Made by a program: the position numbers and the translations under genes
Source: Candidatus Omnitrophota bacterium
Lineage (GTDB): Bacteria > Omnitrophota > Gorgyraeia > B26-G9
Direction of reading: 5' to 3'
Assembly (NCBI GenBank): GCA_043805415.1
Contig: JAZDHZ010000034.1
Span: 37,478-101,477 of the forward strand
DNA length: 64,000 bases
Notes under the pieces: model-generated
Database searches by the model: none
What the model was told of the DNA's origin: nothing
The model's input: only the letters and a program-made list of their open reading frames with translations
In this document: positions 10,249 through 63,297 of the stretch, in pieces
Layout: every line of letters begins with the position of its first letter
Numbering within the stretch: position 1 is the first letter of the stretch

Positions 10249-11502
10249 ATGGCAGATATTTTACCTTTTTGCGGTTTGCGTTATAACAAGAAAAAAGTCA
10301 AAGAAATAAACAAAACTTTTGCTCCGCCTTATGATGTTATCTCACCTAAAGAACAGGCTGAGCTGTACAAACAACATCCGTTTAATGTGGTTAGATTAAT
10401 TTTAGGTAAAACTTCCTCCGCGGATAATCAAAAGAACAATCGCTATACCCGGGCAGGCAATTTATTCTATAAATGGATCAAAGACGGGATTTTGGTTCAG
10501 GATGAAAAACAGTCAATCTATCTGTATACGCAGGAGTACACTTTTGAGGGAAAGGCTAAAAAACGGATAGGGTTTATCGCTAAAATGCAGTTTACCGGCA
10601 AAGGAAGTCTGCCGCATGAGCATACCTTAGCAAAACCAAAGGTAGACAGAGTTAATCTGATGCGCGCGGTCAAAGCCAACCTTAGCCCGATATTCTCTTT
10701 TTATATTGATAATAAAAATGAAATTGATAAGCTTTTAATCCCATTTGCCAAGGAAAAACCAATAATAAGCTTTAAAGACAAAGATAAAATTACGCATCGG
10801 TTTTGGAAAATAGATGATCATATGACCATTGAAAAAGTTAAAAAACTGATGAGCAAAAAAGAGACTTTTATTGCTGATGGGCATCATCGTTATGAAGTGG
10901 CTAAATCCTTTTATGAAGAATCGCTTGCAAAAGGCGAGACTGGTGCTGACGGGGTTATGGTTTATTTTACCGGATTCAATGACCAGAACTTGAGTGTTAT
11001 GCCCACACATAGAATGGTGCAGGATATTCCTGGTCTTGAGAAAAAAATAGATTCTTTGAATAAATATTTTAATATTACACAAGTCGATGGCTTAGCAGCG
11101 ATGCTTAGTACGCAGGCAAAAACATCGGGTTTTTCTTTGGGCATGTGTTATAAAAATGATTTTTATGTTTTAAAAATGAAGGATAAAGTACTGCTTGATC
11201 AAATAATGCGTAAATCTCCGGAACAGTGGCGGAAACTGGATGTGGCCATGCTTAATAAAGTGGTTTTTGAGCATATCTTTAAACTCAATGAAGCAGAAAA
11301 AGAAGACAAGATAACATATACCCGCGATCCTTTATTTGCCGTAGAAAGTGTGAAAAATAAAAAAGTGGGAGTGGTATTTTTCCCAAATACAACCAAAGCA
11401 GAGCAGGTTAAAAAAATAGCATTATCGGGAAATCGGATGCCGCAAAAATCAACTTATTTTTACCCAAAACCAATAACTGGACTTGTGATCAATAAGTTTT
11501 AG
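10249..11502 (+). CDS. DUF1015 family protein
   Basis: The N-terminus ILPFCGLRYN and the motif APPYDVIS are typical of DUF1015. Confidence 0.55.
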   Translation: MADILPFCGLRYNKKKVKEINKTFAPPYDVISPKEQAELYKQHPFNVVRLILGKTSSADNQKNNRYTRAGNLFYKWIKDGILVQDEKQSIYLYTQEYTFEGKAKKRIGFIAKMQFTGKGSLPHEHTLAKPKVDRVNLMRAVKANLSPIFSFYIDNKNEIDKLLIPFAKEKPIISFKDKDKITHRFWKIDDHMTIEKVKKLMSKKETFIADGHHRYEVAKSFYEESLAKGETGADGVMVYFTGFNDQNLSVMPTHRMVQDIPGLEKKIDSLNKYFNITQVDGLAAMLSTQAKTSGFSLGMCYKNDFYVLKMKDKVLLDQIMRKSPEQWRKLDVAMLNKVVFEHIFKLNEAEKEDKITYTRDPLFAVESVKNKKVGVVFFPNTTKAEQVKKIALSGNRMPQKSTYFYPKPITGLVINKF

Positions 11503-11543
11503 TATTGAAGAGATAACTCTTTTTTAATAGTAAAGTCTTTATC

Positions 11544-47232: not shown

Positions 47233-47289
47233 GATCAACGGATTCAAACACAGAAAGACGTGTAAGATGAGCGTTAAGATCAATAGCCA

Positions 47290-47327
47290 AAAAGCAATTC
47301 CTTAAGAAAGGAATTGCTTTTTTTTGT
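47290..47327 (+). terminator. intrinsic terminator after etfA
   Basis: AAGCAATTCCTT-aagaa-AGGAATTGCTT is followed by T7. A second GC-rich palindrome GGCCAGGTC-GAG-ACCTGGCC lies at 47369-47389. Confidence 0.7.
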
Positions 47328-47439
47328 TCACCATGGATAAATAAATGAATATAAAACAAAATCCCGTAGGGCCAGGTCGAGACCTGGCCGAAACATAATC
47401 AAAAAATATGGCCGAAACAAATAAATTAGAAGAAGTAAA

Positions 47440-47450
47440 GGGGACGGTTC
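47440..47450 (+). repeat. GGGGACGGTTC(C/T)ATTT repeat family member
   Basis: Related copies occur at 48514, 49099 and 49897. The copies at 49099 and 49897 are each followed ~25 nt later by a GGGGTCAAGTCTCTA element. Confidence 0.7.
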
Positions 47451-47580
47451 TATTTAATTGAGAGAGTGGCGTTCCTCCGTCGTGCTTGTTCCTCGGTTTA
47501 TAAGGCGGGGCTATCCGTTTCTAAACCAAAGAAAATTAGATCACTTGGTTTTGAAGATGGATAACGTTGCGTGTTTACTC

Positions 47581-47625
47581 GTGAGCGGGGACGTTGTTTG
47601 ATAAATTGATTTATTTAAATAGTGA
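47581..47625 (+). repeat. 45-bp perfect direct repeat copy 1 (GTGAGCGGGGACGTTGTTTGATAAATTGATTTATTTAAATAGTGA)
   Basis: It is identical to 48463-48507. Similarity continues for a further ~40 nt (AAGGGGAYGGTT..TTTTTGG). Confidence 0.9.
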
Positions 47626-47742
47626 AAAAACTAAAAGGAATAAAGGGGATGGTTTTGTTTTTGGTAAACCATAAAATTTGCTTCCCGCATAAATCGGCGG
47701 GGCAAGCTGTTTGCCCTTCGACAAACTCAGGGTAAAAGCGCA

Positions 47743-47748
47743 AACGTT
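47743..47748 (+). promoter_or_regulatory. weaker AAACGTT upstream motif (GCGCAAACGTTATGTGAG) 22 nt before the RDD gene start
   Basis: It shares the CAAACGTTAT core with the motifs at 57828, 58159, 59755 and 60764. Confidence 0.35.
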
Positions 47749-47769
47749 ATGTGAGAAAAAATAATAAAT

Positions 47770-48483
47770 ATGAAAAAAGACTATAAAGAAAAAATATCGC
47801 AGTATACATTGGAAGAACTTATGGATGTTTCCATTCATATTGATAAGGAAAAGTTTCCTGATAGGTATGAAATGATTATTGCGGAGATTGAAGTTAGGAA
47901 GAATCAGCCAAAGGGTAGTTCAGAAGAACAAGATAAAAAACAAAGAATTTTTGCTGGATTCTGGATTAGATTTTGGGCATATGTTTTAGACATAATCCCG
48001 GTGCTATTATTATGGGTATTTTTATATAGGTTTTATTTTCAAGCAAAATCGGTTGTTACTCTATATTATGGAGTTTTTCCTCTGGGCTGGATTGCTTACA
48101 GAATTTATTTTCATGGTAGATGGGGGCAAACACTTGGAAAAATGGCAATGAAAATAAAAGTAGTTAATGTTGACTTTGGCAAAATTGATTATTATGCTGC
48201 TTTTAAAAGAGAAATTGTTAATATATTGATTGATTTAATCACAATAATTGTTGTAGTTGCAGCAATGAAATCTATTCCTTCAGTAAACTGGCTAGTTATG
48301 CCAGAAATAGAAAAGCAAAATGTAATTTTAAGGGCAAAAGATAAAATTAGTTTTATTGGATTGTTCTGGTTATATGCTGATATTATTTGTTTATTAATTA
48401 ATAAGCAAAAACGGTCGATACACGATTTTATTGGAAGCACAATAGTTGTAAGAGAAGAAGTAGTGAGCGGGGACGTTGTTTGA
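47770..48483 (+). CDS. RDD-family membrane protein
   Basis: It has the motifs WIRFWAYVLD, GQTLGKMAMKIKVV and RSIHDFIGSTIVV, with three to four TM helices. Confidence 0.6.
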   Translation: MKKDYKEKISQYTLEELMDVSIHIDKEKFPDRYEMIIAEIEVRKNQPKGSSEEQDKKQRIFAGFWIRFWAYVLDIIPVLLLWVFLYRFYFQAKSVVTLYYGVFPLGWIAYRIYFHGRWGQTLGKMAMKIKVVNVDFGKIDYYAAFKREIVNILIDLITIIVVVAAMKSIPSVNWLVMPEIEKQNVILRAKDKISFIGLFWLYADIICLLINKQKRSIHDFIGSTIVVREEVVSGDVV

Positions 48484-48507
48484 TAAATTGATTTATTTAA
48501 ATAGTGA
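48463..48507 (+). repeat. 45-bp perfect direct repeat copy 2, overlapping the last 7 codons of the RDD gene
   Basis: It is identical to 47581-47625. It encodes the ..VVSGDVV* tail of the RDD gene. Confidence 0.9.
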
Positions 48508-48580
48508 TTTTAAGGGGACGGTTATATTTTTTTGGAATAAATATATATATTTATTCATTCCAAACAAGAAGGAGAGCAAA

Positions 48581-49027
48581 ATGAAGAAGGTGATAGGTTT
48601 TATGGTCACAGTATTAGTGTTGGCAACGGGCATCGCATATGCTGCCATAGAAGAATATTATGAAGAAAAACCTTTAAAGATTCAGAAAGCTGACCCTTTT
48701 GATAATGACAAACAAATAAAAATTCGAGTGGGCGAAAAGATCATATTCAAAATCAAGATATATCAGGATGAATTCTTTGGCCAGACTACTATTAGTGCAA
48801 ATGCTAATATTGACAATACAACCAAACAGAAAGTCAAAGCCATCTATTCAATCTCGTTTCATGATAAGGATGGCAAGCTTGTCGCATGTCACCAGGGATC
48901 ATGGGACCTCGATGAAAATGATGATGTAAATTACGGAAGTGGCATTATCTACACAGATACCGCTTCGATTGCATCAGTTACAAATTACAAATTAAAAACA
49001 CAGGTGATTGAATCTAAAAAGGAATGA
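48581..49027 (+). CDS. small secreted protein of unknown function
   Basis: It has an AAGGAG RBS and a signal peptide (MKKVIGFMVTVLVLATGIAYA). The tracked ORF is longer, but the upstream part covers repeat DNA. Confidence 0.35.
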   Translation: MKKVIGFMVTVLVLATGIAYAAIEEYYEEKPLKIQKADPFDNDKQIKIRVGEKIIFKIKIYQDEFFGQTTISANANIDNTTKQKVKAIYSISFHDKDGKLVACHQGSWDLDENDDVNYGSGIIYTDTASIASVTNYKLKTQVIESKKE

Positions 49028-49098
49028 CCAAAAAAAGTGTAAATGGAGTCAGGTCTTGAATCTAGATAATGGACGAAAAAAGCAAAAAAAGGGGAAAA

Positions 49099-49151
49099 GG
49101 GGACGGTTCCATTTTCGGAGGAAAAACAGAGGGTCAAGTCTCTACTTGACT
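49099..49151 (+). repeat. composite repeat: GGGGACGGTTCCATTTTCGG followed by the palindrome GGTCAAG-tctcta-CTTGAC
   Basis: It is nearly identical in layout to 49897-49950. Confidence 0.7.
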
Positions 49152-49230
49152 ACAAGTAAAATTTATTGAGAAAGAGTGGAAGGCTAGGGGACGTAGTGAG
49201 CTAACCCGGGATTGACGGACACCAAGAAAA

Positions 49231-49268
49231 GGGGTCAAGTCTGTAATCTTGATATTTTTATAAACGTT
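49231..49268 (+). repeat. GGGGTCAAGTCTGTAATCTTGATATTTTTATAAACGTTTGACAC element
   Basis: It belongs to the GGGGTCAAGTCT family. It contains an AAACGTT core 43 nt upstream of the ATG at 49311. Confidence 0.7.
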
Positions 49269-49298
49269 TGACACTAATTTTTGTTTTAGCTTAAAGGT

Positions 49299-49829
49299 TT
49301 GATAGATAAAATGAGAGAAATTTATTACGCGATCTATAAAAATGCTGATTATAAAACAATGGTTATGGTAAGCTTAGCCGAAGCAATCATCTCCAAAAGA
49401 GGCAGATTTAATAAAGATAAATTTATTTTAAGTGATGAAATAGGTTTAAATCGGTTTGAGAAACAAATTTTAAGTAAAATATGTTTAAATAACTTTTGTT
49501 ATTTTCATATTTCAGATTACACTAAATGGATTGATTATTTGATTCAAGAATGTATAAAAAATAAATATTTTAAGAAGCTGCTTGTCTTGGGGCCAAAGCC
49601 AACAAAATATTTTAAGACAGAATTAAAAAAAAATTTAAAAAATTTCAATGAGGATATTATTGCCTATATTGACTCAAGGGAAATTAATTTGTTAATGAAG
49701 ATTAATAAGTCTATTTCCCAAATTAAATTGCCTGAATTTAGACAATTAATCAAAAAAAAAGATATTATGGCTGAAATGATGGCTGAAGTTATGGATAAGG
49801 GGTATTGGCTCGAGGCAGATAAGTTGTAG
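49299..49829 (+). CDS. hypothetical protein (cytoplasmic, Lys-rich)
   Basis: This is an ORF only. The alternative ATG start is at 49311. No recognisable domain was found. Confidence 0.3.
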   Translation: MIDKMREIYYAIYKNADYKTMVMVSLAEAIISKRGRFNKDKFILSDEIGLNRFEKQILSKICLNNFCYFHISDYTKWIDYLIQECIKNKYFKKLLVLGPKPTKYFKTELKKNLKNFNEDIIAYIDSREINLLMKINKSISQIKLPEFRQLIKKKDIMAEMMAEVMDKGYWLEADKL

Positions 49830-49896
49830 CAATAAAAGAAGATATTGAGGGGCGTAGTTTAAAGATTTAAAGTTATAGAAACAATGAAGGAAAAAA

Positions 49897-49965
49897 GGGA
49901 CGGTTCCATTTTCGGTGAAAGATAAGGGGTCAAGTCTCTAATCCTGACATTTTTAACGCTTAATG
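49897..49965 (+). repeat. composite repeat: GGGACGGTTCCATTTTCGG + GGGGTCAAGTCTCTAATCCTGAC + AACGCTTAATGC
   Basis: See 49099. It lies 35-100 nt upstream of the ORF at 50000. Confidence 0.7.
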
Positions 49966-49999
49966 CTAATTTCGTAATTTAAAATTTAAAGGATGAGAA

Positions 50000-51202
50000 A
50001 TGAGAAGAGTATTGCTTGTAATTTTATTAATTGGTGTTTTTTGTCCGTTTTCTTTAGCTCAGGAGCAAAATTCTGATTTCGATTTTAAGATTTTCTTAAC
50101 TCAACAGAGTGAAGAAATGGATTGGTGGAATGGGGTTCCTTCTCAATTTGGTCCGCATATTTCTGAAGTCAGTAGTGTTTCTAAAAAAGAAATTTTTAAA
50201 ATAATACCTATTTTCCGTAATTACGGTCTTGAGGATGGGGAAAAAGCAAACATTATATATAATGTTTCTATTTTAAAGCCAGATAATAGTATTTATGCAG
50301 AGATAAATGATCTTGAGGGGTGGAAGGGTAAAGTTAATGGGCCGTATTTGTTACCAGCGAAAAATAGATTAGTGGTTTGTTTTGAGCCTGAGGACACATT
50401 CGGTGAATATGCTATAAGAATAGAATCTTTTGATAAAATTAAAGATCAGAAAGTAGCTCATGAAGACAAAATTAATCTAGAAGAGTTTAAATTGCCTGAT
50501 TTAAAAGATGATGTAGATCTGTTTTTTACGTACAACTATAATCCTGACCCTGAAAAAGCCATGGCTTATTTTTTGAATTCTGCATACCCGTTTATAAATG
50601 AAAAAGGGCAAGTTGTATGGTCTGGGATATGGTTTTTTAAATGTGTTTTTGATGAAAATGATTTTCTAATTCCCCAAATCGTAAAATTTTTTAAAGATGA
50701 AGCTACTAAAAAGCAGAAAGAGAATATAATTTTACTATTCTATTTTTTAGGAAAAACGAAAGAGCTTGATTTAAAAGGGGATTTAGTAAAATATAGTGAA
50801 GGGTTTAAAAAAATAAAGGCTCCAAATCCTTACGATAAAATAGATAATCCTAGTCAGCTGGATATGCTATGGGGAGAGTTTTTTGCTACTGGTAGATTAA
50901 AACCAGTAAGGCAGATTATATCTTCATTCCAGCTTAGTGAATTCATGGGGACATTGGAAAAAATTAAGAAAAAAGAACTAGATGTTAATGAAAAATCTGT
51001 GTACCGCGAAGCAATGCTTGAAGCTACTTTCAGTTCTGCCCTTTGGTCTTTAGAAAGTAATTGCAATCAATCGAGCTTACTATATCAATATTGCGTTGGA
51101 CTTATTGAGTCTGATGAATTAAATGATAATGAAAAAGGCTATTTAGGAGCTATTTTAAACAGTGTATATGAGAAGAAGAAAAAAGAAGACAGAAAAGAAT
51201 AA
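50000..51202 (+). CDS. secreted hypothetical protein (400 aa)
   Basis: It has a signal peptide (MRRVLLVILLIGVFCPFSLAQE). No recognisable domain was found. Confidence 0.35.
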   Translation: MRRVLLVILLIGVFCPFSLAQEQNSDFDFKIFLTQQSEEMDWWNGVPSQFGPHISEVSSVSKKEIFKIIPIFRNYGLEDGEKANIIYNVSILKPDNSIYAEINDLEGWKGKVNGPYLLPAKNRLVVCFEPEDTFGEYAIRIESFDKIKDQKVAHEDKINLEEFKLPDLKDDVDLFFTYNYNPDPEKAMAYFLNSAYPFINEKGQVVWSGIWFFKCVFDENDFLIPQIVKFFKDEATKKQKENIILLFYFLGKTKELDLKGDLVKYSEGFKKIKAPNPYDKIDNPSQLDMLWGEFFATGRLKPVRQIISSFQLSEFMGTLEKIKKKELDVNEKSVYREAMLEATFSSALWSLESNCNQSSLLYQYCVGLIESDELNDNEKGYLGAILNSVYEKKKKEDRKE

Positions 51203-51220
51203 TAGGGTCAAATAAGAAAA

Positions 51221-51265
51221 GGGATCAAGTCTGTAATCTAGATATTTCCCTAAACGTTCAACGTT
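51221..51265 (+). repeat. GGGATCAAGTCTGTAATCTAGATATTTCCCTAAACGTTCAACGTT element
   Basis: It belongs to the GGGGTCAAGTCT family and has a doubled AACGTT core. It lies 27-40 nt upstream of the ATG at 51292. Confidence 0.7.
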
Positions 51266-51291
51266 AATTTTTACTCAAGTTTAAATGTTAT

Positions 51292-51885
51292 ATGCAAAAA
51301 ATAATAAAAATTACTTTTTTTGTCATTTTTTTTCAAAATGTCCTATGCAATCAGATATTTTGTTCTGAGAAATCACCTGAGCCGTTTGGGGTGGATGACA
51401 TTACACTTGCGGTCACAAATGGGCAGCCGTATATTTATCAGGCTGAAATTTCTGCTGAAAAAAAACTGCATAAATACCTTTGGCTAAGATGTGGGTTAGC
51501 AGGCATATTTGATTCCAATAAACCTGATCTGTTTGGAGGTATTACGCTGGGAGTCAGATTACATGGAAAGGCTTTTTTTGCTCCTTTTGTAGGAATCGGA
51601 AGTTTTTTGGGTGAATCTGCTCATTATAAAGATGCCGATCATGACGGAATTAACAATGACGGCGATGCCTGGACGGATGAACCGGGTGAGAAAAAAAGAG
51701 TTAATAACTTTATTTCTGCAATTTATCCTGAGATTGGTATGCAGATTAATATAGCCAAAGAAAAGAGTATTTCCGCTTTTGGAAGATATTATGTTTCAAC
51801 TGAGGGAAGAGATGATGATTCCTGGATGTGGGGATTTAGTTTTTCGGTTAAATTTGGGGCAGGCCTAAAAAATGAAAAAGATTGA
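51292..51885 (+). CDS. secreted protein with thrombospondin-type-3-like Asp-rich Ca-binding motif (DADHDGINNDGDAWTDE); possible small OM beta-barrel
   Basis: It has a signal peptide, a C-terminal aromatic residue (..FSVKF) and a DxDxDG motif. Confidence 0.3.
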   Translation: MQKIIKITFFVIFFQNVLCNQIFCSEKSPEPFGVDDITLAVTNGQPYIYQAEISAEKKLHKYLWLRCGLAGIFDSNKPDLFGGITLGVRLHGKAFFAPFVGIGSFLGESAHYKDADHDGINNDGDAWTDEPGEKKRVNNFISAIYPEIGMQINIAKEKSISAFGRYYVSTEGRDDDSWMWGFSFSVKFGAGLKNEKD

Positions 51886-52071
51886 CGAATTAAAAAAACT
51901 AGAGTCTTCAGAGGAGATTTTCCTAAGCGCTTAACGCTATCCGCTAAACACTGATTTTGCGGTTTTTTTTGGTAAATCATAAAATTTAGTGAAATAGGGG
52001 GCGTTGATTCAAACATATATAAAAGAAAATTATAGAGAAATAATAGTGTCAGATATTGAAAAAGGAGACAA

Positions 52072-52581
52072 GTGATGAATGAAAATCATCAAACAAATAA
52101 TAAAGGAATGTCTGATCTGGAGATAAAATCCCTTATCGTTAAACGCAATAATGATGCGCAGGAAATCGTTCGATCCCTAAATTCTCAGAGCATTATTAAT
52201 CATTTAATGAGTTCTGATCTAGCAACAAGTATGAGTATGAGTATATGGCTTGGACTGCATGATAATTTTAACTGTGCCCGAGGTCTTTTAGTTCATGTTC
52301 GATCAAAAGAATCCGAGCTAGTTTCTGATGCATATAAATCTTCGGGGGAAATTGTTGGACGATTCCGTTGTAATAACTGTGGTTTTGAGACTGGACTCGG
52401 AGTAAAATACTTTCAACAAAGGATAACCAAAGGAGAGCTTAGCTCTCCGATTAAACCTGAAGATCTTTTTCTTGGTGCAGCAGCTAGAAAATTATCGCAG
52501 CAAGTAATTGATCTACGTAGAGCACAAATTGAATCTCTTCGTTTAAAAGGATCGGACAAGGATGTTTTTCCCTCTCTCTAG
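52072..52581 (+). CDS. hypothetical protein
   Basis: This is an ORF with a GGAGA RBS. It contains an RCNNCG motif. No recognisable domain was found. Confidence 0.3.
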   Translation: MMNENHQTNNKGMSDLEIKSLIVKRNNDAQEIVRSLNSQSIINHLMSSDLATSMSMSIWLGLHDNFNCARGLLVHVRSKESELVSDAYKSSGEIVGRFRCNNCGFETGLGVKYFQQRITKGELSSPIKPEDLFLGAAARKLSQQVIDLRRAQIESLRLKGSDKDVFPSL

Positions 52582-52708
52582 GGAAAGGGGTCAAGTCTGT
52601 AATCTCAACATTTCTCTAATAGAAAGCAACGGTTAAAGGGGTTAAAAAGTGCCCGAATTATTGAGCTAGTACAACATCGCATAAAATTACAGTGGAATAG
52701 AACTAGAG
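52582..52708 (+). repeat. 127-bp perfect direct repeat, copy 1 (begins GGAAAGGGGTCAAGTCTGTAATCTCAAC)
   Basis: It is 100% identical to 57625-57751. A further shared TGAAAACTG follows a 10-bp indel. It starts right at the stop codon of the preceding ORF. Confidence 0.9.
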
Positions 52709-52724
52709 TGAAAACTGCGTAAGC

Positions 52725-52740
52725 GGGGTCAAACCTTGAC
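52725..52740 (+). repeat. GGGGTCAAACCTTGAC palindromic element
   Basis: It is a GTCAA-acc-TTGAC palindrome of the same family. Confidence 0.6.
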
Positions 52741-52783
52741 TTTGGACAAAATGTGAAATATCAGGCGTGATAATAACTTCTAA

Positions 52784-53026
52784 AGTGGAGGTCTGACCCT
52801 GAGATTTTATGGGGAGATACCGGCGACAACTAAAGAGTCGGACGCTATGAGTAAAGCGCTGAAAAATAATAACTTTAAATTTGTCGGATCAACAATTTGT
52901 TACGCGTTTATGCAGGCAGTAGGGATGGTCAATGACCATTTAACTACATGTTATAGATATAATAGAGTACCTAAGGCAAAAAAACAGCGGTTAACGGATA
53001 GGGATAGGAGAAAAATAGTTGGATGA
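52784..53026 (+). pseudogene. tag: 3' remnant (~80 codons) of DNA-3-methyladenine glycosylase I gene
   Basis: The in-frame translation ..ESDAMSKALKNNNFKFVGSTICYAFMQAVGMVNDHLTTCY.. matches the Tag C-terminus (SDALSKALKKRGFKFVGTTICYSFMQACGLVNDH). There is no N-terminal two-thirds. Its stop overlaps the treZ start. Confidence 0.7.
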
Positions 53027-54849
53027 ACAAAAAAATAGGCGCTAACTATACAAATAATAATATCTGCGAATTCTCTGTATGGGCTCCTTTAAAAGAGGAT
53101 ATCTCGCTTCATATCCTTTCTGATAAGCAAAGGATTATTCCGATGCAGAAAGACGCGGACGGATATTTTAGCGTTACTGTTGATGAAGTTGTCCCGGGTA
53201 CAAAATATCTTTTTCACCTTGAAGCTAATAGCGAGTATCCGGATCCCGCGTCATTCTATCAACCGGACGATGTAATGGGCCCTTCTTGTGTTGTTGACCA
53301 TTCGGCCTTTGTCTGGGATGATAAAAATTGGCAGGGATGCTTGGCCGCGGAAATGATTATTTATGAGCTGCATGCCGGGACATTTACGCCAGAAGGAACA
53401 TTTGATGGGATCATTACAAAGCTTTCGCATTTGCAGGATTTGGGGGTTAATACAATCGAAATCATGCCGGTGGCTCAATTTCCCGGAACAAGAAACTGGG
53501 GATATGATGGGGTTTATCCTTTCGCCGTACAAAATTCATACGGCGGCCCAGCCGGGTTAAAAAGGCTGGTTAACGAATGCCACAAACGAAAAATAAGCGT
53601 TATTCTTGACGTTGTTTATAATCATTTTGGCCCGGAAGGGAATTTCTTGCGTCAATATATGCCGTGTTTTACGGATAAATATAAAACAGCGTGGGGCGAG
53701 GCAATCAATTTTGATGATGCCTACAGTTATGGAGTTAGAGATTACTTTATTCAGAATGCTTTGTATTGGTTGGAACACTTCCACATGGACGCTTTAAGAC
53801 TGGACGCGGTTCATGGTATTTTTGATATGAGCGCGAAACATATTCTTAAAGAATTATCGGAAAAAGTGACGGAATTTTCACGATTAAAGCAAAGAAAATA
53901 TTACCTAATTGCTGAGAGTGATTTAAATGACAGACGCGTCATAGATCCTGACTCCAAAGGCGGCTATGGGCTGGACGCGCAGTGGAACGATGATTTTCAT
54001 CATTGCCTGCATACGCTTTTGACAAAAGAAAATCAGGGATATTACGAAGATTTCGGACAGGTTGAACAAATGGCTAAAGCGCTAAAACAAGGATTTGTTT
54101 ATTCGTGGGATTATTCGAAATTCCGGAAAAGATATCACGGAAGCGCATCAACAGATATTTCTGCCGGCCAGTTTGTTGTTTTTTCTCAAAACCACGATCA
54201 AATCGGCAACCGCGTGAAAGGTGAACGGCTTTCCGCGCTGGTTTCTTTTGAGGCTTTGAAAGTTGCCGCCGGGACTGTCCTTCTGTCCGCGAATATTCCT
54301 TTATTATTTATGGGAGAAGAATACGGCGAGAACGCGCCGTTTCTCTATTTCATGAGTTTTCATGATAAGCAGTTGATTGAGGCGATTCGCGCCGGGAGAA
54401 AAAAAGAGTTTGCTTCATTTAATTGGCAGGGCGAACCGGATGATCCGTACGCTGAAGAAACATTTTTAAAATCAAAATTAAAATGGGATATAATTAAGAA
54501 TGAGAAACAGCGTGTTCTGTTGGAATTTTATAAGAAATTGATTCAGATAAGAAAATCGGCCGGGAGCTTGTTTGCGAAAGCTATTCTTGAGGTCAATGCC
54601 GATGAAGAAACTAAAGTAATTTCTATAACGCGTTTACAAAAACAAGCAGGGCTTCATCTCGCGATAAATTTTCACAATAAAAATGCCGCGTATACGTCTC
54701 TAAAGCTTGAGGGACAGTGGAAAAGATTGCTTGTCTCATCGGATATTAAGTGGTTAGGGCCAGGGACAAATGTTCCGGAAAAGGCCGTCAATAACGGAGA
54801 ATTTATTTTGGAACCTTTTAGTTTAATAGTATTTGAGAAAAAACAGTGA
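53023..54849 (+). CDS. treZ: malto-oligosyltrehalose trehalohydrolase (GH13)
   Basis: It has an N-terminal CBM48-like region (FSVWAP). Catalytic regions include DVVYNHFGPEG, GFRLDAVH-like DALRLDAVHG, EEYGENAPF and QNHDQIGNR. Confidence 0.9.
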   Translation: MNKKIGANYTNNNICEFSVWAPLKEDISLHILSDKQRIIPMQKDADGYFSVTVDEVVPGTKYLFHLEANSEYPDPASFYQPDDVMGPSCVVDHSAFVWDDKNWQGCLAAEMIIYELHAGTFTPEGTFDGIITKLSHLQDLGVNTIEIMPVAQFPGTRNWGYDGVYPFAVQNSYGGPAGLKRLVNECHKRKISVILDVVYNHFGPEGNFLRQYMPCFTDKYKTAWGEAINFDDAYSYGVRDYFIQNALYWLEHFHMDALRLDAVHGIFDMSAKHILKELSEKVTEFSRLKQRKYYLIAESDLNDRRVIDPDSKGGYGLDAQWNDDFHHCLHTLLTKENQGYYEDFGQVEQMAKALKQGFVYSWDYSKFRKRYHGSASTDISAGQFVVFSQNHDQIGNRVKGERLSALVSFEALKVAAGTVLLSANIPLLFMGEEYGENAPFLYFMSFHDKQLIEAIRAGRKKEFASFNWQGEPDDPYAEETFLKSKLKWDIIKNEKQRVLLEFYKKLIQIRKSAGSLFAKAILEVNADEETKVISITRLQKQAGLHLAINFHNKNAAYTSLKLEGQWKRLLVSSDIKWLGPGTNVPEKAVNNGEFILEPFSLIVFEKKQ

Positions 54850-57617
54850 AAGTACCTATTAGCACATATCGAATTCAATTTCACGCCGGCTTTACGTTTG
54901 AATCGGCTGCCGGCATATCGCGGTATTTGAAGGATCTGGGGGTATCGCATATTTACGCGTCGCCGATTCTTCAAGCCAAGAAGGGGAGCATGCACGGTTA
55001 TGATGTTGTTGATCCCCTTCAGATCAACCCGGAATTGGGCGGAGAAGAAAAATTTAACCGGCTTATTGAGCAGGTTAGGGCTCTGAATATGGGGTGGCTT
55101 CAGGATATTGTGCCTAATCACATGGCGTTTGACAGTGAAAACAAGATGTTGATGGATGTTTTTGAGAAAGGTGAGGCGTCCCAATTTTTTGATTATTTTG
55201 ACATTAACTGGAATCATCCTTACTTAAACTTAAAAGGAAAGGCATTGACGCCTTTTTTGGGAGATTTCTACGGCAATTGTCTTAAAAAAGGTGAAATAGT
55301 TGTCGGGATAGATGAGAATGGATTTTTTATTAAGTACTATGAATTGAAATTACCGGTACTGTTATCCTCCTACGCCGGAATTCTCAGAGGATGTCTTGAT
55401 TTATTAGAACACGCGGATAATCACACGACAGACGAGGCGGATCAATTCAATCACGCGATTGGGATTTTTAAGGCTTTAAACCAGCGTGACAATCAGGCGG
55501 TGACTGTTGCCAAAGCCGGCCTTTGGCGCGTGTTTACGAAAGATAAAAGAGTTGAAAAAACTATCGCCAGTTTCCTAGAGAAAATGAATAATGGAAAAAC
55601 GGATTCATTAGACCTGCTTCACAATCTAATCTCTGATCAACTCTTTCGTCTTTCTTTCTGGAAAGTAGGTAATGATGAGTTAAATTACAGGAGGTTCTTC
55701 ACGGTCAATTCCTTGATATGTTTAAGAGTGGAAGAATTCAGCGTCTTTGATTTTCTTCATAAGCGGATATCGGAGCTTGTTAATAATGGGCAAATAGACG
55801 GTATCAGGCTGGATCATATTGACGGTTTAGATTCTCCGCTTATTTATATGCGGCGGTTGAGGGAAAAAACAGGAGACCGGTATATTGTTGTGGAAAAGAT
55901 TCTTTGTAAAGATGAGCACCTGCCCGAGAATTGGCCGGTACAAGGAACGACGGGGTATGATTTCCTGAACTATGTTAATGGGGTTTTTGTTGACGCCGCG
56001 TCTGAACGCGCGATGGAAAGAATCTATATATCGTTTAGTGGTATGCGTTTTCGGTTTGAGTCGCTTGTCGTTGAAAAAAAACGGTTATTTATGGGAAAGC
56101 ATATGGCCGGCGATATCGATAATCTCGCCCATTTATTGAAAAATATTTTGAGTGGGAACATATATGGTTCTGATTTTACAATGTATGGGTTGCGCCGGGC
56201 TTTGGTCGAAATTATGGCGCATTTTCCGGTGTACCGAACTTATGCTTCGGAACTTGGGATAAGCGAGTCAGATATGTTTTATATTAAGCAGGCGCTGGAT
56301 AGAGCCCGGAGGACAGGGCAAGACCTTTTATATGAATTAGACGCGATTGAAAAAATCCTTTCTTTGGATTCCGCGCTTAATATAAACGACGCGGAAAAGG
56401 AAAAATACCGTCATTTTACGAAAAGATTTCAGCAGTTTACCGGCGCTCTGATGGCCAAAGGCTCAGAAGACACCGCGGATTATATTTTTAACCGTTTCAT
56501 ATCGCTGAATGAAGTAGGCGGGTTTCCGGAAAAGTTTGGCCTGGCATTAGGAGATTTTCACGAATTTAATGTTAAACGACTGAAAGACTGGCCGTATTCA
56601 ATGAGCGCGACGGCAACACATGATACCAAACGGGGAGAAGATGTCAGGGCGCGGATTAATGTGCTTTCTGAAATGCCGGAAGAATGGAAAAATATCGCAA
56701 AATTATCACATAAGCAAAATAAGAAGCACAAATCGAAAATCGGTCATGAGCTCGCGCCCGGCAAAAATGATGAATATCTTATTTATCAGACGTTCATTGG
56801 CGCTTTTCCATTTAAACCAGAGGAAGCAGAAAATTTTAAGGAAAGGATGAAGCAATATATCGTTAAAGCTGTTCGTGAAGCGAAGCTTCATACGGCATGG
56901 CTGAAACCAGACACACAATATGAGGAGGCCTGCGTCAAGTTCATTGATAGAATTTTAGATTCTTCAAGTGAAAATCAATTCCTGAATAATTTTATTCCTT
57001 TTCAAAGAAAAGTAGCATATTTTGGGATGTTTAATTCTTTGTCCCAGACACTTCTTAAATTAACAGCACCGGGTATACCCGATATCTATCAAGGCAATGA
57101 ATTGTGGGATTTTAATTTGGTTGATCCTGATAACAGAAGGCCGGTTGATTTTGAGAAACGTAAGCAATTTCTTAATGAGATACAAGGTAAAGAGAACGAT
57201 TTATCACCTCTGATCAAGGAATTGCTTGCCCACAAAGAAGACGGAAGAATAAAGATGTTCACGCTCTACCGTCTTTTGAAGGCAAGAAATGAATTTAGCG
57301 AATTATTTCAGAACGGCGAATATATCCCTCTTGAGGTCAAGGGGGCATTACAAAACCACATTATTGCTTTTGCCCGCAGAAAGGACAATAGCTGTTGTGT
57401 TGTCATCGCTCCGCGATTTTTATCAAAGGTTGTTAAAGAGAATGAGTTGCCTTTGGGAGAAACGGTCTGGCAGGATACAGCGATCATTTTACCCGAAGGA
57501 TTTCCGTCAGAATGGAGAGATATCCTAACCGGGGAAAGCCAGCGAGCGGAAGGGATTATCTTTATAGGAAAGGTTTTAAAGATTCTTCCGGTCAGTTTAT
57601 TGTCTTTGCATGAATAA
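54846..57617 (+). CDS. treY: malto-oligosyltrehalose synthase (GH13)
   Basis: It has the N-terminus ISTYRIQFHAGFTF..LGVSHIYASPILQA..GSMHGYDV and DGIRLDHIDGL. Length is 923 aa. Confidence 0.9.
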   Translation: MKVPISTYRIQFHAGFTFESAAGISRYLKDLGVSHIYASPILQAKKGSMHGYDVVDPLQINPELGGEEKFNRLIEQVRALNMGWLQDIVPNHMAFDSENKMLMDVFEKGEASQFFDYFDINWNHPYLNLKGKALTPFLGDFYGNCLKKGEIVVGIDENGFFIKYYELKLPVLLSSYAGILRGCLDLLEHADNHTTDEADQFNHAIGIFKALNQRDNQAVTVAKAGLWRVFTKDKRVEKTIASFLEKMNNGKTDSLDLLHNLISDQLFRLSFWKVGNDELNYRRFFTVNSLICLRVEEFSVFDFLHKRISELVNNGQIDGIRLDHIDGLDSPLIYMRRLREKTGDRYIVVEKILCKDEHLPENWPVQGTTGYDFLNYVNGVFVDAASERAMERIYISFSGMRFRFESLVVEKKRLFMGKHMAGDIDNLAHLLKNILSGNIYGSDFTMYGLRRALVEIMAHFPVYRTYASELGISESDMFYIKQALDRARRTGQDLLYELDAIEKILSLDSALNINDAEKEKYRHFTKRFQQFTGALMAKGSEDTADYIFNRFISLNEVGGFPEKFGLALGDFHEFNVKRLKDWPYSMSATATHDTKRGEDVRARINVLSEMPEEWKNIAKLSHKQNKKHKSKIGHELAPGKNDEYLIYQTFIGAFPFKPEEAENFKERMKQYIVKAVREAKLHTAWLKPDTQYEEACVKFIDRILDSSSENQFLNNFIPFQRKVAYFGMFNSLSQTLLKLTAPGIPDIYQGNELWDFNLVDPDNRRPVDFEKRKQFLNEIQGKENDLSPLIKELLAHKEDGRIKMFTLYRLLKARNEFSELFQNGEYIPLEVKGALQNHIIAFARRKDNSCCVVIAPRFLSKVVKENELPLGETVWQDTAIILPEGFPSEWRDILTGESQRAEGIIFIGKVLKILPVSLLSLHE

Positions 57618-57624
57618 GTTTGCA

Positions 57625-57751
57625 GGAAAGGGGTCAAGTCTGTAATCTCAACATTTCTCTAATAGAAAGCAACGGTTAAAGGGGTTAAAAAGTGCCCGAA
57701 TTATTGAGCTAGTACAACATCGCATAAAATTACAGTGGAATAGAACTAGAG
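57625..57751 (+). repeat. 127-bp perfect direct repeat, copy 2
   Basis: It is identical to 52582-52708. It starts 8 nt after the treY stop. Confidence 0.9.
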
Positions 57752-57827
57752 GGTCAGGCATTGAAAACTGAAGACTAAAAACAATTGGAAATGCAGGCAA
57801 TCAAATAACGCTGTGCGTTTCTTCTGC

Positions 57828-57844
57828 CTGAGCTCAAACGTTAT
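57828..57844 (+). promoter_or_regulatory. conserved upstream motif CTGAGCTCAAACGTTAT (TGAGCTCA + AACGTT palindromes)
   Basis: It lies 19 nt upstream of the ATG at 57863, followed by an AGGAGG RBS. The same motif occurs at 58159, 59755, 60764 and, degenerate, 63257. Confidence 0.6.
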
Positions 57845-57862
57845 AACTAAGGAGGGAATATC

Positions 57863-58105
57863 ATGGCTTGTCCGATAGAAGGTAGCTGTACATTTCATAA
57901 TAATCAAATACATATGTTGGAAGAACGGAAAAAAATAATACAAGTAAGGTTTTGTCTTAGTAGTTATTCGCAATGTGCTCGTTATAAAGTATATGCATAT
58001 TTTAAATCTACACATCAGGTTCCTCCAGGTTTATACCCAAATAATTTTGAGCAAGCTAATGAACTGATCCAAAACGATAGGCGGAAACATGGCGGCGGGC
58101 ATTAA
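57863..58105 (+). CDS. small Cys-containing protein (80 aa; CPIEGSC..C..C)
   Basis: This is an ORF with a strong RBS and the conserved upstream motif. No recognisable family was found. Confidence 0.35.
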   Translation: MACPIEGSCTFHNNQIHMLEERKKIIQVRFCLSSYSQCARYKVYAYFKSTHQVPPGLYPNNFEQANELIQNDRRKHGGGH

Positions 58106-58158
58106 TTGTACTAAAACTATGTGGGAAATAAAGGGAGACAATACTTAATTACTCTGTT

Positions 58159-58174
58159 TGAGCTCAAACGTTAT
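58159..58174 (+). promoter_or_regulatory. conserved upstream motif TGAGCTCAAACGTTAT
   Basis: It lies 39 nt upstream of the ATG at 58213, followed by an AAGGAG RBS. Confidence 0.6.
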
Positions 58175-58212
58175 ATAAATTTTTCGCTAGTTAAAATAAT
58201 TTAAGGAGACAA

Positions 58213-59742
58213 ATGTTCCATATTAGGCTTATTGATCGATTCTTTGTTTTATTGATTAAGATTATTGATAAAGCGCAGGATAAGATTATCAAGAATTATG
58301 CTGTGTTTACTTTGATTGTGAGTAGGGCTCCGCAAACGGTCGGAGCGGAAGCTTGCTGGTATAGAGCAATCAAAGAATTTATGATTGCTTATAAAGATGT
58401 TCCGGCTTATAGAGAGTTTCTGAAGAAGAGTGGCTGGAAATGCGAATCCAGGGATGCTAAACGTATTTTTGAATCATTGCCTTTAATGGATAAAGCTAAT
58501 TATATTCTTCCTTATAGTACAGAGGATAGATGTCTTAACGGTAAGTTCTTTGACAAAGGGGTTGTTATTGATGAGTCTTCAGGATCAACAGGTATTCCTT
58601 ATAACTGGGTAAGAAGCCAGGAAGAAAGGGAAATTGTTAAACAGCTGATTGGGGTGTATCTGCGATACTGTTATGGTAATCAGAATTTTATTATTCTGAA
58701 TACATTCAGTATGGGAGCCTGGGCAACTGGGTTTAATATGGCTTTAGCAGCACAGTCATTGGGTGTGGTTAAGTCTACTGGTCCGGATGTGGATAAAATA
58801 TTAAGAACGCTTGAATTTTTTAGCGGTAAATATCCGTATATTCTTAATGGATATCCGCCATTTTTAAAATATCTGTTTGATGAAGGAGATAAGCGGGGAT
58901 TTAAGTGGAAAGATTATAATATCCATGTGCTTGTCGGCGGAGAAGGCATGTCCGAAGGATTAAGGGATTATCTGCTTAGGTACGCGAAGACGGTTTATTC
59001 CGGTTATGGGGCTTCTGATTTAGAGATTGGCATCGCAGGTGAGAATCCTTTGACTGTTATGATCAGGAAGTTATGCCTTAAAGATCCTGAGTTAAAAAAC
59101 ACGCTTTTTGGCGAAGATCACCGCATGCCCATGCTTTTTCAGTATAATCCTTTGGATCATTTTATTGAAATAATCCAAAAAGAAATAGTTGTGACCATAA
59201 GTAAGCCTTGGACGCTTTCTCCCAGGATAAGATATAATATCAAGGATGAAGGGGGCATGATTACTTTTGATCAGATGAAAGAAAAGCTGAAAGCGCATAA
59301 TGTTGATTTATTGGAATTGGAACTGGAATGTAAATATCCGCGTTGGTATGTACCGTTTTTATTCATATACGGCAGAAAAGACAGTACTGTATCAGTTATG
59401 GGAGCAAATATATACCCTGAGGATGTGGAAAGTGTAATATATTCAGATTTGATGCTGGCACAGAATATTAATTCATTTTCAATATCACTGGAAGAGGATA
59501 CTCAAGGCAATCCGCATCCTTGTTTTGAATTTGAATTACTGGATATAGAGCAAAAATCCCGGGTTGAAAAGAAATTAAGTGAATTAATGTCATCCGGTCT
59601 GGCTAAATTAAGTCTGGATTATAAGAAGGCTTTGGAAGAGTATCCGCAGGCACTTGAGCCGATTATCAGGATTTTTGAGTTAAATCAAGGGCCGTTTAAG
59701 GAAAATCAAAGGCGGATCAAAAGACGCTATGTTAAGAGCTAG
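58213..59742 (+). CDS. adenylate-forming enzyme of the PaaK/CapK/F390-synthetase-like (phenylacetate-CoA ligase) family
   Basis: It has the A1 motif ESSGSTGIPY (compare SSGTTGKP). The C-terminal ~509 aa match this family, with an N-terminal extension. Confidence 0.5.
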   Translation: MFHIRLIDRFFVLLIKIIDKAQDKIIKNYAVFTLIVSRAPQTVGAEACWYRAIKEFMIAYKDVPAYREFLKKSGWKCESRDAKRIFESLPLMDKANYILPYSTEDRCLNGKFFDKGVVIDESSGSTGIPYNWVRSQEEREIVKQLIGVYLRYCYGNQNFIILNTFSMGAWATGFNMALAAQSLGVVKSTGPDVDKILRTLEFFSGKYPYILNGYPPFLKYLFDEGDKRGFKWKDYNIHVLVGGEGMSEGLRDYLLRYAKTVYSGYGASDLEIGIAGENPLTVMIRKLCLKDPELKNTLFGEDHRMPMLFQYNPLDHFIEIIQKEIVVTISKPWTLSPRIRYNIKDEGGMITFDQMKEKLKAHNVDLLELELECKYPRWYVPFLFIYGRKDSTVSVMGANIYPEDVESVIYSDLMLAQNINSFSISLEEDTQGNPHPCFEFELLDIEQKSRVEKKLSELMSSGLAKLSLDYKKALEEYPQALEPIIRIFELNQGPFKENQRRIKRRYVKS

Positions 59743-59754
59743 GGTTGGATAGCT

Positions 59755-59776
59755 CTGCCTGAGCGCAAAACGTTAT
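59755..59776 (+). promoter_or_regulatory. conserved upstream motif CTGCCTGAGCGCAAAACGTTAT preceded by a stop-codon hairpin AGAGCTA-N8-TAGCTCT
   Basis: It lies 30 nt upstream of the ATG at 59806, followed by an AGGAGG RBS. Confidence 0.6.
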
Positions 59777-59805
59777 GTGTTGTATCACTTGAATAAGGAG
59801 GGGTT

Positions 59806-60690: not shown

Positions 60691-60763
60691 TAATTTGTGT
60701 AAATTTATAAAAAATCACTTTAGCTAACTGGAGTGCGCGCGCAAATGGAGTTCAACCCAGTAG

Positions 60764-60778
60764 CTGAGCTCAAACGTT
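60764..60778 (+). promoter_or_regulatory. conserved upstream motif CTGAGCTCAAACGTT
   Basis: It lies 45 nt upstream of the ATG at 60823. Confidence 0.55.
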
Positions 60779-60822
60779 CGGCGCGCAATAAGCATGAAAT
60801 GTCTTTGCGGTGCTAAAAGGAT

Positions 60823-62006: not shown

Positions 62007-63206
62007 GTGGAAAAATTAAAGTTTGGAGCTTTGATTGAAAAAAGTATAGCCAGGACAAAGCAGATGCTGCTAAAGCCCTTTTCTTTTAGGAAATGGATGT
62101 GGCTGCTGTTTATCGCGTATATGGCAGGAGCCATGAGCGGAGGAACAAACCTTAATTATAATTTTAGTGGAAACAATAGTTCTGATCAGACTCAAACCGT
62201 ATCAGAGTCCGAAGACATTGCGAAAGATCCGGATCAGGCAGAGCCTAATGATGAGCCAGAATCCAAGCAGGCAACTGAAACAGATATATTTATTAGATTT
62301 GTGGCAGATAAGGATTTTAAGGCTAAAGAATTCTTCGCGGAACTTAAAAAAAAGGCAGTATCTGAAGAATTTAGACATTTTCTTTTGCCGATTGCCATCG
62401 GTGTATTTGTTTTGTTTGGGATTATAATTATTTTTACCTGGTTATACAGCAGGTTTTTATTTATCTGGTTTGAAGCTATTGTTAAAGATCAGACGGCGAT
62501 TAAAGAGCCTTTTAAGCGGTATAAGCAACAGGGTTCATCAATTTTTAAAGTATCCATCTTGATGATGTTTTTTGGGCTGATTCTCTTTGGGCTTATTGTT
62601 TTATGGATGCTTAGTATATTAAGAAGCACTGGAGTTTGCGCTGATTTTAATAACCTTAATTTTAAAGAAGTCCTTAAAGTATTGCAAGTTCCCTTAATTA
62701 CTCTTTTGGGTTGGTTTATTTTTTCTAATTTATGGGATTTTTTCCTTTCTAAGTTTATAGTTGTTTTCATGGCAGTAAAGCAAACGACTTTCTGGCCTGG
62801 GTTCAGGGAACTTATCAGAGTTCTGAGCGAACATAAAAAAGATATGTTTTTCTTTATTTTGATGTCTATTCTGCTGGGAATAGCAGTGTGGATTATATAT
62901 ATAGTAGTATTTTTAGCGGGTATTTTAATATCATTATTAATCGGGGGAGTTTGCTTGGGACTTATATATTTCATAATTGTGTTTTTGCTGAAATTAAAGG
63001 TTCTGTTTAATGTCTTAGCAATTATTTTTGCTGTGTGTTTTGCTGTATGCGTAGTTTTATTTATTACTTGTATCGGTTTGCCGTTTGCTGTGTTTTTTAA
63101 GAATTTCTTATTATATTTTATTTCAAATTTAAACTGCGGGTATACGCCAATTCCTTTGATTGAAGAGCCGGATGAGGCAAAACCGGAAAACAAAGAAGCA
63201 ATCTAA
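62007..63206 (+). CDS. polytopic membrane protein with acidic N-terminal linker
   Basis: It has a GTG start with an AAGGAG RBS and at least six hydrophobic helices in the C-terminal half. An antisense 234-aa ORF on the opposite strand was judged spurious. Confidence 0.4.
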   Translation: MEKLKFGALIEKSIARTKQMLLKPFSFRKWMWLLFIAYMAGAMSGGTNLNYNFSGNNSSDQTQTVSESEDIAKDPDQAEPNDEPESKQATETDIFIRFVADKDFKAKEFFAELKKKAVSEEFRHFLLPIAIGVFVLFGIIIIFTWLYSRFLFIWFEAIVKDQTAIKEPFKRYKQQGSSIFKVSILMMFFGLILFGLIVLWMLSILRSTGVCADFNNLNFKEVLKVLQVPLITLLGWFIFSNLWDFFLSKFIVVFMAVKQTTFWPGFRELIRVLSEHKKDMFFFILMSILLGIAVWIIYIVVFLAGILISLLIGGVCLGLIYFIIVFLLKLKVLFNVLAIIFAVCFAVCVVLFITCIGLPFAVFFKNFLLYFISNLNCGYTPIPLIEEPDEAKPENKEAI

Positions 63207-63256
63207 AAGATTAGCTGGCTAGTGACTGCGCGCGGAAGAAGCCAAGATAAATATTC

Positions 63257-63272
63257 GCGCTCAAGTGTTATG
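63257..63272 (+). promoter_or_regulatory. degenerate copy of the upstream motif (CGCGCTCAAGTGTTATG)
   Basis: It lies 25 nt upstream of the ATG at 63298. Confidence 0.4.
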
Positions 63273-63297
63273 TAAAAAAACTAAAAAAGGAAACAGA

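Follow-up and report, generated by a model that had tools for sequence, protein, structure and literature searches.

In a 64-kb window of chromosomal DNA from a Candidatus Omnitrophota bacterium (contig JAZDHZ010000034.1; the window is the whole stretch analysed, and all coordinates refer to it), the region from ~47.3 kb to the window end at 64 kb is an integron-type array of co-directional gene cassettes located directly downstream of etfBA. Part of this array carries a short repeated sequence, here called box B, which is a lineage-specific, orientation-locked box in array spacers without attC sites. It is a separable module and adjoins rearrangement joints. The reading we favour, with a rough probability of 0.35, is that box B is a protein-recognised cassette-junction or recombination box. 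The integron array itself is a known kind of element, present here in a poorly studied phylum, while a sequence-invariant box replacing attC in part of an array is undescribed as far as we could find; a literature search for the 16-base box core GGTCAAGTCTGTAATC returned no paper.

Box B was searched for with the 19-mer GGGGTCAAGTCTSTAATCT, allowing up to three mismatches on both strands of the window, and 100 dinucleotide-preserving shuffles served as the control. Exactly five matches were obtained (at 49231, 49926, 51221, 52587, and 57630), all on the + strand, and the shuffles gave none; a repeat search stretches the family to 37 nt with 81-100% identity. A first-pass annotation of this DNA had listed seven palindromic copies. 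The motif is real and five of these are near-exact, but the copy at 49132 is a variant, whose described perfect hairpin is indeed a true one of 7-8 bp, and that at 52725 comprises the left half only. Repeat spacings in the family are 85 to 5043 nt. The five copies lie within 8.6 kb, and none was found in the other 55 kb, including 47 kb of core genes and the part with canonical attC sites, nor was any inverted copy detected on either strand of the window. Copies 52587 and 57630 are not independent, as both are contained in one exact 127-nt direct repeat. Five other Omnitrophota metagenome-assembled genomes (MAGs; L001, L017, L020, L038, and L062) have one exact box B each, with unrelated flanks. 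A metagenome scan gave 10 matches, two of them duplicates of Omnitrophota loci, and added nothing further; the viral contigs searched contained only chance or tandem-repeat matches.

The box (22-27 nt) comprises a purine/A tract, GGGG, the arm GTCAAG, an 8-nt spacer TCTGTAAT, a variable CTTGAC-type arm, and ATT(T). Over nine distinct copies, including those of the five other MAGs, GGG-TCAAGTCT-TAATC and the following A-TT are invariant. In these MAGs 18-22 nt of the box are identical despite the unrelated flanks, the remaining spacer being ~77% identical or unrelated. Variation is seen in the six right-arm bases (TTGATA, CTGACA, TAGATA, TCAACA, ACAACA, and ACGTCA). The earlier statement that the left arm is conserved and the right arm variable is thus borne out, and the 8-nt spacer is as invariant as the left arm. 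When the box is modelled as a hairpin (A-tract, GTCAAG, 8-nt loop, CTTGAC, T-tract), 79% of cells pair over the nine copies versus 33-55% in slid alignments, and there is one compensatory pair (G-C to A-U); the imperfect hairpins proposed in the first pass are weak. An invariant loop and unpaired G residues beside a decaying arm point to sequence-specific recognition rather than to a structural hairpin. Likewise, an invariant left arm and spacer joined to a variable right arm fit sequence-specific recognition and hybrid sites, and neither a purely structural hairpin nor a -35 box.

With regard to the canonical sites, what defines attC is a conserved structure containing R and L boxes and not the sequence, and integrase-less clusters are termed CALIN (attC-site clusters that have no integron-integrase) (PMC9024848). 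In the related Omnitrophota contig L079, each intergenic gap is a textbook attC site, which begins at the stop codon with (T)ATAAC(G/A)AWTCGCTAYAGG, continues through a variable central hairpin, and ends in YACCTGAGCTCAARYGTTAT, followed by a ribosome-binding site and ATG. One of these sites, folded as single-stranded DNA, gave z = -6 with a bulged base and served as the positive control for box B folding. Seven L079 sites and six window sites were aligned; their R''/R' and L''/L' helices are 77% paired versus 26-45% with the partner slid, and compensatory changes occur in the L helix. Covariance model R1, a model specific to this family of attC sites and built from this alignment, recovers all six sites of the window (E 3e-12 to 7e-5; Table 1) and also detects sites outside its training set, namely four in L077 (E 7e-5 to 0.017) and single ones in L101 and L102 (E 0.0014), so that the attC family of the array also occurs in four other contigs (L077, L079, L101, and L102). 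In the window, the repeat (C)TGAGCKCAAACGTTATRT is found 20-50 nt ahead of six start codons. With its six sites the array qualifies as an integron cassette array, for which two or more clustered, co-oriented attC sites with R''/R' and L''/L' helices between promoterless open reading frames (ORFs) are expected, and it is counted as a CALIN or a degraded sedentary integron because the window holds no integrase: integrase, recombinase, and transposase domains were absent from the 44 window ORFs scanned against Pfam, which include 43 of the 53 ORFs of at least 150 aa.

As the first-pass annotation had stated, every box B copy is intergenic within the co-directional cassette array, and all are located between attC 47683-47756 and attC 57775-57850. 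The 10-kb stretch between these two sites contains no canonical attC by the model, only a 15-bit remnant at 51247-51297. Box B and canonical attC are nearly exclusive, four of the five B-bearing spacers being without a model match and five of the six attC spacers without box B. The box sits at the spacer end nearest the upstream ORF, and three of the five copies start 6-20 nt past the stop codon (Table 1), with distances of 0-14 nt in L017, L038, and L062; overall, the box starts 0-20 nt past the stop in seven of ten copies and is co-oriented with the gene in nine of ten. In canonical cassettes of this family, the same stop-proximal position is occupied by the R''-L'' half of attC.

Three of the copies are followed by a decayed attC 3' half and then by the start codon of the following cassette. 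The ~50-nt module 3' of box B in these spacers reads (A)AACGYT..TAATTT..AAAKGTTWKAT, then ATG, and its 3' part is ~80% identical to the attC-like 3' end of an L077 spacer (GTCTGAGCTCAAAAGTTGAAAT). The sequence AAAC-GTT is the spacer-R' junction in every canonical attC of the array (...CTCAAAC-GTTAT...), and the "AAACGTT core" of the first pass is accordingly the attC R-box motif. It had been reported after four copies; it follows two (49262 and 51252), and a third has AACGCTT. Similarly, four copies were said to lie 30-80 nt upstream of start codons, but only three do so, at 71-80 nt from box start (52-61 nt from box end) to ATG. Nucleotide homology with L079 places the ORF-50000 cassette at 49981 to 51199, which assigns box B to the 3' non-coding tail of the preceding cassette. 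Box B was also considered as a diverged L'-R' or R''-L'' half of the local attC family, to which it shows weak by-eye similarity (GAGCTCAAGT--GTTAT versus GGGGTCAAGTCTGTAAT) that the model does not detect. A coding remnant (frame KGSSL-stop) and a hicA-like origin were not supported by BLASTP or Pfam.

Table 1. Boxes, repeats, attC sites, and attC remnants of the cassette array in window coordinates.
Feature	Position	Strand	Context
Degenerate box, GGAGTCAGGTCTTGAATCTAGATA	49045..49068	+	18 nt past stop 49027; resembles box after ORF-52075 homologue in L100
Box A, GGGGACGGTTCCATTTTCGG	49099..49118	+	~30 nt ahead of box B; likewise at 49896
Variant box B'', GGGTCAAGTCTCTACTTGACTAC	49130..49152	+	stable 7-8-bp hairpin; same variant after box B in L001
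Box B, exact, AAAAGGGGTCAAGTCTGTAATCTTGATATT	49227..49256	+	204 nt past stop of ORF 48581-49027; 80 nt ahead of ATG 49311
Box B, 1 mismatch to 19-mer, TCTCTAATCC	49922..49951	+	box A precedes; 74 nt ahead of ATG 50000
Box B, 1 mismatch (GGGA; paired right-arm base T, giving A-U)	51217..51246	+	19 nt past stop of ORF 50000-51202; 71 nt ahead of ATG 51292
Box B, exact	52583..52612	+	6 nt past stop of ORF 52075-52581; in left 127-nt repeat copy
Box B, exact	57626..57655	+	13 nt past treY stop; 145 nt upstream of attC 57775-57850; in right 127-nt repeat copy
Left half-box, GGGGTCAAACCTTGAC	52725..52740	+	left half only
Further half-boxes	51205-51212, 52638-52645, 57681-57688, 57751-57758	+	
Decayed attC-like remnant, ATAAAC-GTTTGAC ... 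TTAGCTTAAAGGTTTGAT	49258..49305	+	3' of box B; ~80% identical to attC-like 3' end of L077 spacer
Equivalent attC remnants	49950-49992, 51247-51297	+	3' of box B
Exact 127-nt direct repeat	left 52582-52708, right 57625-57751	+	begins 5 nt ahead of box B; flanks 4.9-kb insert
attC	47683-47756	+	leftmost in array; covariance model
attC	57775-57850	+	covariance model
attC	58105-58180	+	covariance model
attC	59706-59782	+	covariance model
attC	60704-60786	+	covariance model
attC	63192-63277	+	covariance model

That box B is separable from its surroundings and adjoins joints is seen at several loci. The window spacer 49830-50002 and its counterpart in L077 (2902-3052) have two blocks in common, GTTTAAAGATTTAAAG on the 5' side and TAAACGCTT..TGCTA..TAATTT on the 3' side; box B and a second repeat, box A (described below), sit between these shared blocks in the window only. 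In the ORF-52075 cassette, the ORF is followed by box B in the window. Downstream of its homologue in L100 (82% identity) there is a degenerate box, AGGGTCAGGTCTGAAATAAT, preceded by three tandem CAGAAATAA units, which occupy the junction of ORF end and box (L100 705-760), and the homologues in L101 and L102 (77%) have a canonical attC ahead and no box after. L101 and L102 have the same attC and ORF, and their sequences part directly after the stop GGAATAA, which suggests, by sequence comparison, that a junction lies at the stop itself.

Between the two copies of the exact 127-nt direct repeat lies a 4.9-kb insert, which carries a 3' fragment of tag (3-methyladenine glycosylase; the last 47 codons, 52817-53008) followed by treZ and treY. 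This insert has the look of a core-metabolism segment that the array has captured. Past an indel, similarity between the repeat copies resumes over TGAAAACTG. Box B as the native 3' flank of treY was considered and rejected, the box being absent from relatives at 84%, 74%, and 66% identity.

Truncations and short duplications also occur at the box in other MAGs. In L073, a second hicB comes after an intact hicB-hicA pair, and the partner ORF of this second gene meets box B after ~24 codons and has no HicA domain. The region concerned (10423-11538, the same DNA as in L001) thus contains two tandem hicB-hicA modules, with box B in place of the remainder of the second hicA; a truncated small ORF lies farther on, past the B'' hairpin and a short inverted repeat (GATAACATC..GATGTTATTC). 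In L017 (reverse strand 7405-7440), an 18-nt tandem duplication, with ACAGGAATAAGGGGTCAA present twice, spans the stop codon and the first 8 nt of box B, and window positions 51205-51238 have the same layout. Three of the five box-B contigs (L020, L038, and L062) have a length of only 2-5 kb, and a contig end lies ~340 nt from the box in L017 and L062. L062 also has an inverted pair of boxes 210 nt apart.

Downstream of box B, L017 (reverse strand 7630-7772) and L038 (1910-2125) contain small-gene remnants in opposite orientations, that of L038 being flanked by inverted ATTCACCACAGAG..CACAGAG repeats. An invertible segment was considered for these two MAGs and rejected, the inverted homology being an unrelated small-gene remnant flanked by CACAGAGG repeats. 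The remnant peptide (..HKVQLLTYMKLAKIKVDLLINCNVKLLKNGIE) may represent a GxxExxY-type protein.

Taken as a protein-recognised junction box, box B would be the recognition core of a non-canonical cassette junction, that is, a protein-binding and recombination site of the form arm, 8-nt overlap, arm. The conserved arm and spacer would come from the tail of the upstream cassette and the variable arm from whatever DNA was joined to it. The box would then act like an att core or an attC stem, marking where DNA was joined, duplicated, or truncated, while not being itself a canonical attC.

Several observations weigh against this reading. No integrase, recombinase, or transposase was found in the 64-kb window among the 44 ORFs compared with Pfam, and no mobility event was directly observed. 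The 127-nt duplication reaches 105 nt beyond box B and is better explained by homologous recombination than by a crossover in the box. The cassette border maps to the R' box at ~49981, ~50 nt downstream of box B and not inside it. The arms GTCAAG/CTTGAY lack the RYYYAAC/GTTRRRY boxes of an attC core site (the scan for the pattern RYYYAAC...GTTRRRY gives one match per strand in 64 kb), model R1 has no match over any copy, and single-sequence folding, a check suggested in the first pass, is no better than that of shuffles (z -0.9 to +0.8, as RNA or DNA, on either strand). Box B is therefore not an attC, since it fails the R-box, folding, and model tests. Finally, an A-tract, a weak hairpin, and a T-tract would also suit a weak terminator. 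Of the two first-pass labels, "recombination-site-like" fares better, as the boxes are located in inter-cassette spacers beside decayed attC remnants, but it finds no backing in the attC tests or in a recombinase among the ORFs scanned.

A terminator or insulator at the cassette 3' end, which would stop or attenuate read-through, possibly in both directions, is an unlikely explanation that nevertheless deserves some weight. The box lies just past stop codons and is co-oriented with the genes, its A/T-flanked hairpin (GUCAAG/CUUGAY, 8-nt loop) has the pairing excess and the compensatory pair described above, and a terminator scan flags the minus-strand reading of two copies. However, the same scan calls none on the + strand at any box B, while the genuine etfA terminator shows a stem of 15 bp; the box stems are weak, and the T-tract is missing in L017, L038, and L020. 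A structural element would behave in the opposite way to box B, in which one arm decays beside an invariant loop and an invariant unpaired GGGG, and the box is restricted to one array.

It is rather less probable that box B is the end or footprint of a miniature mobile element. Modelled on IS200/IS605-type PATEs or on IS1111-attC and group IIC-attC elements, it would insert next to a hairpin or an attC site, keep to one orientation, and leave no target duplication. In favour of this, the window spacer differs from its L077 homologue by the A+B unit as an indel, the copies share one orientation on a stretch of uniformly positive GC skew, terminal inverted repeats and target duplications are absent as in HUH-type elements, and L062 has its inverted pair. 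In addition, a short ORF after the box in L017, MSRPLRIEYEDAF followed by a stop, has a putative resemblance to the N-terminus of IS200-like Y1 proteins; it has no Pfam match. On the other hand, no second end can be defined, box B occurs mostly without box A, the unit length is inconsistent, no transposase was found in the window ORFs scanned, and each other MAG has a single exact copy.

More doubtful still is a functionless relic, in which box B would be the best-kept piece of an ancestral spacer or attC, spread by duplication or gene conversion and by cassette transfer between MAGs. Two spacers (49224-49322 and 51214-51312) are paralogues with 77% identity along 99 nt, and copies 52587 and 57630 are parts of one duplication, as such spread would have it. 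The identity of 18-22 nt in five other MAGs, within spacers that are otherwise ~77% identical or unrelated and have unrelated flanks, argues against it.

A promoter module, with the right arm as -35 (TTGACA) and the invariant part as an upstream operator or activator site for the next cassette, appears improbable. L017 and L038 have TTGACA and, after 16 nt, AATAAT or TATAAC (near-consensus, by eye), and the three window copies that precede an ATG have TAATTT 17-20 nt past the hexamer. However, no part of the box varies more than the putative -35 hexamer, a sigma-70 scan reports no promoter at any window copy, the hexamer spacer is 20 nt in two of these three copies against the usual 16-18 nt, and two copies have no nearby gene after them. 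Lastly, a classical repetitive extragenic palindrome (REP), bacterial interspersed mosaic element (BIME), or miniature inverted-repeat transposable element (MITE), the other label of the first pass, is very unlikely: the box is an imperfect, intergenic, repeated palindrome, but it is confined to 8.6 kb of the window in one orientation, has one copy per other genome and irregular spacings, folds insignificantly, and shows neither terminal inverted repeats nor flanking duplications.

The array borders on a conventional part of the genome. Pfam scans of the window ORFs show positions 1-47 kb to consist of ordinary core genes, on the + strand save four, which include malQ, hflX, hrcA-grpE-dnaK-dnaJ, greA, uvrA, exbB/tonB, a fab operon, and acyl-CoA dehydrogenase with etfBA. 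They end at the strong etfA terminator identified by the terminator scan (47289-47322), past which the genes are small or unrelated and mostly without a Pfam match, and the short spacers are repeat-rich. The G+C content is 0.31-0.33 at 48000-52000 versus 0.36-0.44 elsewhere, and the drop coincides exactly with the box-B-bearing cassettes. The small ORFs of 47233-47769 were checked for integrase remnants, and nothing suggestive was seen; no tRNA or tmRNA integration target is present in the window, and Rfam gave nothing relevant (gathering threshold for the whole window; E up to 5 for 47.2-53.1 kb). Cassettes encoding a 400-aa protein, an 80-aa protein, and DUF7544 are common to other Omnitrophota contigs in different order. 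The proteins shared with the related contigs L075, L077, and L079 have only 57-71% identity, the L079 homologue of ORF 50000-51202 being 63% identical.

The array also contains further repeats. Box A (AAAAGGGGACGGTTCCATTTTCGG) represents a second repeat family, with solitary copies at 47440, 47642, and 48514. Its start, AAAAGGGG, is common to box B, and the A+B unit of ~65 nt is seen twice (49099 and 49896). An exact 45-nt direct repeat, GTGAGCGGGGACGTTGTTTGATAAATTGATTTATTTAAATAGTGA (47581-47625 and 48463-48507), flanks an RDD-family ORF (47770-48483); the second copy provides the last codons and the stop of this ORF, and the repeat resembles a variant attC 3' end (GAGC-GGGGAC-GTTGTTT). The ORF-less stretch 47585-47756 is conserved between two MAGs (L075 ~8085-8200) and contains box A GGGGAYGGTTYTRTTTTTGG, then TAAACCATAAAATTTGC, with an attC at the end. 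Window positions 47651-47694 are 91% identical to L075 8093-8137, and a partial copy is located at 51963-51987. This stretch is a candidate for a cassette without an ORF, for instance a promoter or a small RNA. A perfect 14-bp palindrome, GTTTGAGCTCAAAC (58155-58168), lies within attC 58105-58180.

Integron arrays are not known to be punctuated by anything but attC sites, which are recognised by shape and not by sequence. Here a sequence-invariant box punctuates part of an array, at places where insertions, duplications, and truncated genes are seen as well. Should box B be used by a protein, there would be a second way to join or fix cassettes, with consequences for how arrays decay or are remodelled after integrase loss. 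A broader proposal, which we regard as speculative and doubtful, is that boxes B, A, and D are sites of a second, attC-independent recombination system beside the classical integron array in Omnitrophota. In such an alternative cassette grammar, a sequence-specific double-strand core (arm, 8 nt, arm) would replace the structure-specific attC hairpin and be served by a putative recombinase. If box B is merely a terminator or a relic, the annotation is still useful in that the region is a CALIN and the "AAACGTT core" an attC R-box.

Among known systems, box B is closest in setting to attC/CALIN, as it occurs in the same array and at the same position, namely the 3' end of a co-oriented cassette ORF, at or abutting the stop. 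Like attC, it has the form of an imperfect inverted repeat that includes an unpaired stretch, lies beside AAAC-GTT R-box-like motifs, and travels with cassettes. It differs in the missing RYYYAAC/GTTRRRY, in having no significant single-strand fold, in being invisible to model R1, and in its invariant sequence, whereas attC sites conserve structure rather than sequence (PMC9024848). With an intrinsic bidirectional terminator it shares an A-tract, hairpin, and T-tract just past the stop, but its stem is weak and AT-rich, its loop is invariant, one arm decays, and it is restricted to a single locus.

Resemblance to REP/BIME elements with RAYT (REP-associated tyrosine transposase) is limited to a short intergenic imperfect palindrome with a conserved 5' part; box B is undispersed and in a single orientation, its hairpin is not significant, and no RAYT gene was found in the window. 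Tn3-family elements have 38-bp terminal repeats in inverted pairs, a 5-bp target duplication, and a DDE transposase, and their miniature elements are known as TIME. A putative resemblance of box B to these repeats is that it begins GGGGTC and has ACG(C/T)T ~31-35 nt in, but in the window the inverted partner, the 5-bp duplication, and the transposase are absent, and conservation does not extend to the inner 20 nt. The shufflon sfx sites of Rci are asymmetric tyrosine-recombinase core sites, inverted and inside coding segments. Although the sites in the window are direct and intergenic and no recombinase was found here, box B has the same construction, in which a conserved arm and central spacer stand beside a variable second arm and the asymmetric spacer gives direction.

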